A stretch of 43,124 nt of DNA from positions 1-43,124 of IMG/VR virus record IMGVR_UViG_2531839664_000026, one strand, 5' to 3'. Shown piece after piece: positions 18,001 to 21,000 of this stretch. This stretch comes from a virus. Its lineage: Duplodnaviria > Heunggongvirae > Uroviricota > Caudoviricetes. Position 1 is the stretch's first letter. Each line of letters begins with the position of its first letter. Made by a program: the position numbers.

Positions 18001-21000
18001 CAATCAGTACATTACTGCTGTGACTCCAACACGGCAGTTTTTTTATTGAACAGATTCCAGTTTCTTCCACCATCGCACCGGATGGGCGACCATGAGGGGA
18101 GAACGCCGCGCTCCGTTTACGCGGTAAACCCCGGTGTGTATCGTTTTTGATTATCCCCGCACACTCTCGCAGAGGAGTCTCCCTGTCGGGCTGCGGTCTC
18201 TGTTAATGCAGGAATACGGCGACAATACCGCGCATGGATAATAAGGTCGCTCAACACACTGGCTGTAATTCAGCGGATACCATTCGGCATTTATCAGTAT
18301 TCATCACGCACTCAACGGTGAATTCTTCATGCGTGGCATTCACTTCATATGTTCGTGAATAACATTCAGTGCATTTACCTCTGAACACCTCTTCAAGCAG
18401 AACACGGCCATGTTGCAAAACACGGAACGGAATTGTTCCCTGAAAAGGTTTTACCGTTACCTGTAATTTCTTCATACATCCTCCGGATAATAAAAAGCCT
18501 GCTTAGTACACTGAGTGCGGATATAGTCCTGTGCCCCTTCCACCTGCTTCTGCATTGTCATCAATCGTTCTCTGAGGATGAAATAATCCCGTTCAGCGGT
18601 GTCTGCCAGTCGGGGGCCGGTTGCATTATCCACGCCGGAGGTGCCGGTGGCTTCACGCACGGTACCGGGGCAGGTGGCGTTGATCCGCAGGCGCTTACGA
18701 CCAGCGGCAACATCAGCGCGCAGAGTTTCATTTTCAGCTCTCGCATCGGCTAATTCCCTCGAGTATCTGGCATCAAGTGCAGCAACATCACGCTGGCGCT
18801 GCTGCATATCAGTAATGGTTGCATTTGCCAGCTCCAGCTCACTGACTTTTTTATCGCGCTGCTCTTTGTAGGTTATGGCGTTATCACGGTAATGATTCAG
18901 CCCCAGACTAAGCGCACCACAGGCCACCAGCAGGGCAATGATGACCACGCACAGTACGCGGTTCATTTCACCACCAGCGTATCTGACCAATGAAATAACC
19001 GGAAGCCATAATCACAAACACCAGCCAGATAAGGATGAACTTCCAGGTGGATAATTTTTCAGCCATCATTCGAATCTCCCGAATCAGTTTGCTAAAATCA
19101 AACACACTTTCTCCTTTGACTTTTCCGGAGTCAGGAAACACAAAACCCCGCTTGCGGCCAACAAACGGGGTTTTACTTTTATTCACTTAGTTTTTGCCAG
19201 TTCGCAGGATTTCGTGTTATCCGCCCGTGTGAGCAAACCGCATTTTTCAGCAAAATATTCTGCTTATCTGTCAATTCCCCAGCACGCCAGCGCGCTCTCC
19301 TGGTCACGCCGTGAGACCTGACCGTAGCAGTTGTTTGAGCGAATACGGCAGTCTCTGCCACCGTCCTTAATCCACCAGCGAATCGCCTCGCATGCTCCCC
19401 TGCGGTCACCAGCATTAATCCGTCTGTAAAACGTCGACGGGAAACACTTACCGGGGCCAATGTTGTACGGACAGAATGACGCAATACCCGCTTTCTGGGG
19501 TTCGGTCAGCGGCACTCTGATATTGCGCTCCACCCACTCCAGCGCCTTATCACGTTCAATGGCGTTAACCTGGTCGCACTTTTCCTTCGACAACTTCATA
19601 CCCGGGACGACAGGTTTACCATCCACCAGGATGGCACCGCGGCAGATGGTCCAGATACCCGCACCATCACGGTATGCCGTGGTGTGGTTACCTTCTTTTT
19701 CGTCAAGAAACTGGTCGAGGATTTCAGGCGCAGACGCCCCTGCACCAATCAGCGCCAGAACGGCAGCCGACAGGCCGTATCTGATTTTTGCGTTCATGGA
19801 TATTTATCAGGGTTTATCGATTTCAAATCCCTGGATATGTTAAGTCTTCAGGCCAGCGGTGGAGTCTTCAGAGAACCAGTAATTATTCCCGGTAGTTTTC
19901 CTCTGTAGGTTATCAACACATCCTGCGCCTCTAAAATGATGGGCCGCTTTTCCGGCAACGGACCATCCCCTTCACATAACCCGGCAGCAACATCCATGAA
20001 AAACTGCTTCGCCTGCTTTTTCGCCTCAGCTTCGTAAAACTCCAGCGTGGCACCTTCAGTACGGTCAAGACTAATCGCCACATCTGGCAACAACAGTGAC
20101 GGATACCCACCAATTTCCAGTGCCACAGTAACAGTAATCTTATCCGGGTAATTATTTATCCCTTTAACACCCAGTTCGTATTTTTTCTTCATCGCTTTAC
20201 TCTCCCCGCGCCGCCTTACGCTTATCTTCTTTAATCTTGAAATAAAGGTTTGTCAGATACGTCAGCAGGCCAAACAGCAGACTCCCCAGCACACCTATCG
20301 CCACCCACTGGGACGGAGAGACTTTGTCCAGCAGCTGCAGTAACCAGTATCCCGTCCCACGCTGACGTGGTGTATGACACACCTGTTGTGTATTTTTTCC
20401 ATCTGATGTATGTCTCCGTCACCGCCGACAGGAAATGAAAGTAAAGAAAAACAAAAAAGCCGCCAGTGTCACCCACTGACGGCCAACGCCGGGAGCCGTG
20501 ATTATGGCATTCAGGCTCTGCTAAAAATGCCAGATAACATTCCGGCCTCCCCTGATTCAGGTTATAAATGACACAATATCTTGACAACATCCGTCACTGT
20601 CTGTCAGAAAATGTACTGCCATATAGAAGCAACATGTGAAGTACATCTATCCTTTTGAGCCAGCACCTCTCCACCGAAAGTCAGTGCTGGCTGTTTTTTT
20701 CCTTAATAAGGCATCTGTAACTGAAACAATCCGCATATTGATAATATATTGACAGGCATCATTGCTGTCTGTGAAAAATAAGTCTCTACAAACTGAGGTG
20801 TACTGGCAATAGCGGACACTACCATTTGTTCTTTTTTTAAGCAGCCATCTGATGATATTTTTCCCTGAAGGCTGCCGGGGAGATATTCCCCAGACGAGAG
20901 TGACGACGCTGACGATTGTAGAAAATCTCAATGTATTCCCGTATTACTGAGATGGCTTCATCCCGGTTATTAAAACGATAGTGGCTCAGGCTCTCATTTT

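Follow-up and report, generated by a model that had tools for sequence, protein, structure and literature searches.

The stretch of DNA analyzed here (the window) comprises 43,124 nucleotides of the virus record IMGVR_UViG_2531839664_000026 (Caudoviricetes) and is a lambdoid prophage with its late operon on the minus strand. Its late control involves the antiterminator Q, the site on which Q acts and a strong terminator located directly in front of the holin gene. An earlier reading of the sequence alone (the sequence-only reading) had combined this terminator with promoter-like hexamers upstream of it into a late control region resembling pR'-6S-tR'. Based on our comparisons, Q most likely acts on a different element, a cassette at 27039-26948 (minus strand) which lies close to Q and 6.5 kb upstream of the holin-proximal terminator. 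The sequence preceding the holin is a constant component of a widely distributed module of esterase, PasA small RNA (sRNA) and holin, and its terminator is an ordinary, widely conserved internal one. We consider it quite probable that these parts belong together in one model, with the cassette as Q target, the holin-proximal terminator as insulator, the hexamers as part of the PasA promoter and the terminator behind Q as boundary of a cargo insertion. The main elements are:

20197-20402, minus strand: class II (S21-type) holin, start at 20402, with three indels in its first 55 nt
20443-20484, minus strand: holin-proximal intrinsic terminator with stem, loop and T-rich tail
20616-20700, plus strand: PasA sRNA of 85 nt, assigned by identity to PasA of strain E2348/69
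26948-27039, minus strand: candidate Q-target cassette, assigned by linkage of its motif to the Q type
27015-27032, minus strand: conserved CTAACGCGTACGCAAAAA of the cassette
27008-27013, minus strand: alternative hexamer TATTAT of the cassette
27003-27008, minus strand: -10-like hexamer TATCGT of the cassette
26978-27002, minus strand: conserved leader GTTAAGAGTGGTTACTTCGCCACAC of the cassette
26948-26966, minus strand: cassette hairpin (26966-26955) and T7 (26954-26948), putative tR'
28565-28906, minus strand: antiterminator Q of 113 aa (PF06530, E = 2e-45)

The terminator in front of the holin

On the minus strand a stem of 11 bp (7 G-C pairs) with a loop of 5 nt was found at 20484-20458, followed by TTTTTTGTTTTTCTTT to about 20443. 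From the 3' end of the element to the holin ATG (20402) the distance is about 40 nt. With a folding energy of about -21 kcal/mol it ranked first among the terminator-like sites within 19-30 kb, a region which contained 30 such sites compared to 11.2 ± 3.0 in shuffled sequence. The plus-strand version was weaker (-14.8 kcal/mol over 60 nt) and no T run followed it. The element is a real, strand-specific rho-independent terminator and the strongest one in this region, in agreement with the sequence-only reading.

The terminator was identical in phage 434 and in the prophages PP2 and PP5 of E2348/69, and the curated record of phage 434 (OL657226) labels the element as terminator at 45673-45709, before a gene named 'holin class II'. 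In phage 21 (OL657228, locus L093, 2487-2547) an extra, unannotated hairpin with a U run was found about 50 nt before S21, in the interval that separates this gene from the tRNA genes (-25.5 kcal/mol, z = -4.6); the hairpin is separate from the annotated tR'. In phage Ayreon, too, a terminator is annotated about 40 nt ahead of the holin. A terminator in front of the holin which is distinct from tR' is therefore a recurring arrangement.

In published RNA-seq of the E2348/69 lysogen (PMC8550237 supplement) the baseMean fell from 102 in the esterase to 3.5 in the holin, with 3.2 and 1.0 in the two genes that follow. This drop fits termination in the gap between esterase and holin but does not prove it. 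Most likely, the holin-proximal terminator shields the lysis genes from Q-independent transcription of the cargo in lysogens. Three points speak against this assignment or reduce its weight. The expression values on which the insulator role is based were obtained from another strain, E2348/69. All 2860 copies of the module in E. coli genomes were at least 95% identical, too similar to be informative on covariation. Furthermore, the 116 nt ending at the terminator folded with -45.7 kcal/mol (z = -3.2), and none of 200 shuffled sequences was as stable; such a fold is not needed by a plain terminator.

The same fold would be expected if a structured sense RNA of ~110 nt (about 20555-20443) existed, either as an sRNA of its own or as a regulatory leader, with the terminator as its 3' end more than as an insulator. 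We regard such an RNA as unlikely, and the same applies to its conceivable origins, namely a weak promoter sharing the -35 with PasA or cleavage from the 3' end of the esterase mRNA. When H-19B and the window are compared, conservation of this stretch exceeds that of the 5' half of PasA, and RIL-seq, in which interacting RNAs are ligated and sequenced, lists a sense-strand RNA from the intergenic region pairing with PasB. However, Rfam searches of 20300-20900 and 26400-27150, with gathering and E-value thresholds, returned noise only, the RIL-seq fragment (E2348/69 743494-743512) lies upstream of the proposed start, and the putative promoter is poorly spaced. In the Hfq-CRAC (cross-linking and analysis of cDNA) list of strain Sakai, the PasA homologues EcOnc51 and EcOnc52 have no neighbouring peak on the sense strand.

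Comparison of the region 20380-20793 revealed how widely the module is distributed. It was almost identical to prophage PP2 of E2348/69, an enteropathogenic E. coli (EPEC), and shared 99.5% identity with phage 434, 98.6% with Shiga toxin 1 (Stx1) phages and YYZ-2008, and 95% with H-19B. In total, 699 of 5426 complete E. coli genomes carried the module, with a median of 4 copies and at least 95% identity throughout. The Q proteins next to it differed: PF06323 (Q82 family) in phage 434, a 144-aa PF06530 protein in H-19B and the 113-aa DLP12-like PF06530 protein in the window. In E2348/69 PP2 an antitermination protein Q of 229 aa is annotated. Q proteins load at a binding element that is specific to each Q type. 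Since the module is 95-100% identical beside three Q types, the holin-proximal element is not Q-specific.

This bears on the sequence-only reading, in which a functional late promoter (the hexamers at 20587-20561) and its tR' (the terminator at 20484-20443) would be the site of Q action, separated from Q by 8 kb of inserted DNA. The hexamers do exist (TTGTCA at 20587-20582 and TATAAC at 20566-20561, about 80-100 nt upstream of the terminator), and a strong strand-specific terminator does precede the holin. In addition, DLP12, PhiR40_1, cdtI and strain c1-17 do have their Q target at a large distance from Q, a short way upstream of the holin. Nevertheless, we consider this explanation very improbable. 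The spacer of the pair is only 15 nt, and a promoter scan with 16-18 nt spacers did not report the pair. Promoter-like pairs occurred in the region at chance level (17 versus 13.8 ± 3.6 expected). When 20436-20590 was compared with the Q-to-S region of phage 21 including pR', with the nmpC-essD region of DLP12 and with the cassette of the window, only chance matches of up to 14 nt were obtained. A cassette linked to the Q type is present elsewhere in the window, and the -35 suits PasA on the other strand. The hexamer pair is thus probably not a working minus-strand promoter, and the proposed resemblance to pR'-6S-tR' could not be upheld.

On the plus strand, the bases of the minus-strand -35 contain a perfect TTGACA (20581-20586). 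It lies exactly 30 nt upstream of 20616, the shared 5' end of PasA and PasC, and hence occupies -35 to -30 relative to this end, which for PasA was taken from RNA-seq coverage. The matching -10, TCAGAA, is poor. Most likely, the hexamers belong to the PasA promoter. PasA has been validated in E2348/69 as an 85-nt Hfq-dependent sRNA, esterase and holin being encoded on the other strand (PMC8550237 Table S6), and the synteny of esterase, PasA and holin has been described (bioRxiv 10.64898/2026.05.13.724894). The window copy is 100% identical to E2348/69 NC_011601 743499-743415, contains the published probe sequence and has its terminator end at 20700.

PasC of prophage PP5 is a related sRNA with its 5' end at the same aligned position. 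In PP5 (locus L212, about 590-770) the similarity to the window does not extend past the T run of the terminator; the start of an annotated ISEc13 transposase gene follows at a distance of about 170 nt. PasC and the terminator are kept and the holin is missing.

The candidate target of Q

Q is located at 28.6 kb, as the sequence-only reading had stated. Within the Pfam family PF06530, which includes Q21 and Q933W, it belongs to the subtype of QuuD from DLP12 (45% identity). Comparison with Q21 structures gave a distant match only (E = 3e-4).

Between Q and the methylase gene a sharply bounded conserved unit of ~90 nt was found on the minus strand (27039-26948). It consists of CTAACGCGTACGCAAAAAGTATTATATCGT, followed by GTTAAGAGTGGTTACTTCGCCACACAACTTAAA and a hairpin with T7. 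In the 80 loci that were fetched by the Q protein, its core motif was located 625-2460 nt downstream of Q, and the flanks on both sides of the cassette were unrelated between loci. A further 79 loci were fetched by the motif only. An upstream Q was detectable in 64 of them; in all 64 it was of the window/QuuD type and on the same strand, and no other Q family was found upstream of the motif in these informative loci. In six loci free of cargo the motif followed the Q stop codon by 34-38 nt, which is the classical pR' position. The cassette was matched in 3728 of 5426 complete E. coli genomes; all 12 matches listed were unannotated.

From these sequence features, their conservation, the linkage to the Q type and the arrangement at empty sites we infer that the cassette has promoter activity and a transcription start site and that Q is loaded there. 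The sequence-only reading had named, as one of two options, a true site of Q utilisation elsewhere, and the Q-type-specific cassette at this position supports that option. The other option, cargo inserted between Q and its target, applies as well, though on a smaller scale, namely to 1.5 kb (27091-28552) and not to the whole interval from Q to S.

Within the cassette the hexamer directly 5' of GTTAAG had an invariant A at position 2 and an invariant T at position 6 in all variants inspected. The conserved TACG(C/T)AAAAA lies in the spacer. The sequence TAAGAG resembles the pause element TAAGCTG of phage 21, and whether it is transcribed depends on the -10 chosen. The stem sequence of the cassette terminator varied across loci, and a G+C-rich hairpin with a T run was kept. 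In Ayreon and 720R4 the terminator and its downstream DNA are shared, but the 60 nt upstream of the terminator are not. The Q of Ayreon belongs to the Q-lambda family PF03589 according to Pfam; the 250-aa Q of 720R4, at the same position, is presumably of this family too.

Several features of the window allele weaken the case for a Q-responsive promoter at the cassette. The -35 is poor, there are two possible -10 registers (TATCGT and TATTAT), and neither Q-binding repeats nor a convincing sigma-dependent pause element could be made out in the cassette. The putative tR' hairpin is weak as well, with -6.3 kcal/mol compared to about -11.6 kcal/mol in DLP12 and most relatives.

The weak -35 and the lack of a clear pause element or of Q-binding repeats would also be compatible with a cassette which consists of a conserved leader and terminator only, the late promoter and the loading site of Q being located elsewhere, for example in the 3' end of Q or in the cargo. 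However, the sequence upstream of the cassette is completely different from one cargo class to the next, the 3' end of Q varies as well, and no other conserved site was found. At empty sites just 34-38 nt are available between the Q stop codon and the motif. Moreover, DLP12 and PhiR40_1 have a good -35 (TTTACG and TTTACA, respectively), a 16-nt spacer and TATGCT at the aligned position. A mere leader function therefore appears rather improbable to us, and the cassette as the site of Q action is the reading that we prefer.

In the cassette terminator of the window (26948-26970) one G is lost, an allele common to at least 16 of the fetched loci.

For DLP12 we also considered a late start derived from the reporter primers that were published as '-121 to +650'. 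With its forward primer at 4254 of locus L091, +1 would be near 4375. This position is about 350 nt upstream of the DLP12 cassette, so that the numbering evidently refers to another promoter, which we took as the RpoE one, and the candidate was rejected.

If the cassette is the Q target, late transcription would proceed as follows. RNA polymerase would start at the -10-like hexamer and transcribe the conserved leader of ~35 nt. Q would modify the polymerase at the cassette, and the weak cassette terminator would be read through. The modified polymerase would then pass at least five more terminators over 6.5 kb, across methylase, tRNAs, TerB, sRNA genes, esterase and IS600; terminator-like hairpins between cassette and holin are located at about 26914, 25128, 24207, 24091 and 20484. 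The element at 20484-20443 would be the last and strongest internal terminator, halting Q-independent transcription from upstream promoters of the accessory (moron) genes. Holin and endolysin would remain silent in lysogens, and the terminator would be overridden once Q is made. Such a long read-through over cargo would match the moron region of Stx phages upstream of S, R and Rz, which is controlled by pR' and Q (PMC8065619).

Cargo and neighbouring genes

The remaining features of the late region, in the order of transcription of the late operon, are:

28924-29913, minus strand: DUF968 gene, adjoining Q
27091-28017 and 28004-28552, plus strand: two-gene antisense cargo (308 aa and 182 aa), no match in Pfam
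26623-26826, minus strand: open reading frame (ORF) of 67 aa, first cargo gene after the cassette
25414-26472, minus strand: N6_N4 DNA methylase (Pfam)
25141-25373, minus strand: tRNA-Arg (TCT) and a tRNA with CAT anticodon, as in Stx phages
between the tRNAs and the sRNA genes, minus strand: TerB protein gene
24178-24367, minus strand: STnc100 sRNA gene (Rfam, 148.1 bits)
24116-24177, plus strand: AgvB sRNA gene (Rfam, 96.5 bits)
22116-23968, minus strand: NanS-p-type SASA carbohydrate esterase in two ORFs (Pfam DUF1737, SASA, DUF6645)
about 20794-22055, minus strand: insertion sequence (IS) IS600 of the IS3 family, between the esterase stop codon and PasA
after the holin, minus strand: DUF1327 gene, then lysozyme gene

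Immediately behind Q, starting 5 nt after its stop codon, a hairpin with T7 is located at 28560-28536 (minus strand). The sequence-only reading had noticed this terminator, and it is present as described. Cargo classes differed from each other in the final 30 nt of Q and in what follows, many of them with a hairpin soon after Q, and no hairpin was found between Q and cassette in the six empty-site sequences listed. As the sequence behind Q varies with the cargo and the hairpin is missing at these empty sites, the terminator belongs to the cargo. On the basis of this comparison it is best described as the boundary of the 1.5-kb antisense cargo and not as a module conserved with the Q type.

The cargo of the window (27091-28552, plus strand, 1.5 kb) encodes a protein of 308 aa and then a hydrophobic, membrane-like-looking protein of 182 aa. 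Neither had a match in Pfam or PADLOC; they correspond to phrog_2802, a family of unknown function. In the sample this two-gene module was the commonest cargo class. Among the loci L006-L210, the gap between Q and cassette could be compared in 175 loci, of which 12 were empty and the others represented 37 cargo classes. The cargo in this slot was A+T-rich and almost always antisense to Q. Matches to defence or candidate-defence families of PADLOC were obtained for five of ten representative cargo proteins (PDC-M53A, PDC-S33, PDC-S20, NsnA/PD-T4-2_A and HEC-04/OLD-like). Kiwa occupied the slot in strain c1-17 and the porin NmpC in DLP12. A literature search yielded nothing specific on a Q-proximal defence hotspot in lambdoid phages. 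We tentatively suggest, with somewhat less than even confidence, that the gap is a dedicated hotspot for antisense cargo, much of it for anti-phage defence, and that the module of the window is an uncharacterised defence system. If so, the variable antisense slot between Q and promoter would be a simple genomic anchor for the discovery of new prophage-borne defence genes.

The region from Q to the methylase (26473-29000) was 100% identical to E. coli O121 strain RM8352 and 99.9% identical to phage mEp460_4F5. The order of the 67-aa ORF and the methylase was the same in Stx2a_1447, cdtI and PhiR40_1. The CAT-anticodon tRNA was classified as tRNA-Met by ARAGORN and is annotated as tRNA-Ile in RM8352. 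Upstream of the esterase, AgvB and STnc100 directly abut on opposite strands; sRNA genes in opposite orientations have been described for moron sites of Stx phages in published work.

An IS element in the interval between Q and S had been pointed out in the sequence-only reading. IS600 does lie in this interval, though downstream of the cassette and not between Q and its proposed target.

The esterase of the window shared 95% identity with the esterase gene of E2348/69. Relative to this strain it is broken into two ORFs, and three single-base indels fall in the first 55 nt of the holin (20348-20402). In RM8352 both holin and esterase are intact. The holin indels and the split of the esterase reflect either decay of the prophage or sequencing errors.

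In the early region (34771-34959, minus strand) a C4 antisense RNA (82.8 bits) was found beside isrK (56.6 bits), both according to Rfam.

Comparison with known systems

For annotation, these results mean that tR' should not be assigned on the basis of a strong terminator just before a holin. A search for the short conserved motif GTTAAGAGTGGTYACTT can reveal the probable target of DLP12-type Q proteins. This would also concern Stx phages with the same Q type, such as Stx2a_1447. In a published survey (PMC6266700) several Stx prophages had no reference pR' site that could be located.

In lambda, a short terminated transcript (6S) is made upstream of the lysis genes, and the cassette of the window probably gives rise to a comparable terminated RNA of ~50 nt. 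This analogy does not extend to the holin-proximal element, which in contrast to pR'-6S-tR' has no linkage to Q. Furthermore, the Q family of lambda (PF03589) is unrelated, and lambda has no cargo between Q and pR'.

Phage 21 shares with the window the Pfam family of Q and the logic of promoter, short leader and terminator. According to its curated GenBank record OL657228, from which the Q-binding element (QBE) and related sequences were taken, pR', QBE, the sigma-dependent pause element (SDPE) and tR' are annotated directly after Q, with reference to the literature; the unit has the same position in window-type loci without cargo. However, the pR' region of phage 21 has no sequence similarity to the cassette or to 20436-20590, and the QBE repeats ATTGAGCA/AATGAGCA are absent.

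The holin-proximal part corresponds to that of E2348/69 PP2, phage 434 and YYZ-2008, which are 98.6-100% identical to 20380-20793 including PasA and the terminator. The window differs from these by IS600, which parts the esterase from PasA, by one base change in the spacer and by the indels of the holin.

In the Stx phages H-19B, 933W and Stx2a_1447 the late region is laid out as Q, pR', tR', tRNAs, stx, nanS-p and S, and the window agrees with them in the succession of methylase, tRNAs, sRNA genes, esterase and class II holin. Stx2a_1447 additionally shares the Q subtype, an antisense cargo and the same cassette. Unlike these phages, the window carries no stx genes, contains the inserted IS600 and has a disrupted holin and esterase.

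The closest counterpart of the late control is DLP12. Its Q is of the same subtype, antisense cargo separates this Q from the late control region, and the core motif, followed by a terminator, is identical in 24 of 25 bases. Control of the essD operon of DLP12 by a Q-type antiterminator is stated in PMC7918800 with reference to Rueggeberg et al. (2013). The cargo differs, being the porin NmpC with IS5 in DLP12 and the two-gene module in the window. In DLP12 the order is quuD, antisense nmpC and the cassette about 175 nt before essD, whereas in the window 6.5 kb of moron cargo follow the cassette. The architecture of the window is thus an ordinary one, in which late control of the DLP12 type is combined with a moron region of the Stx-phage type.

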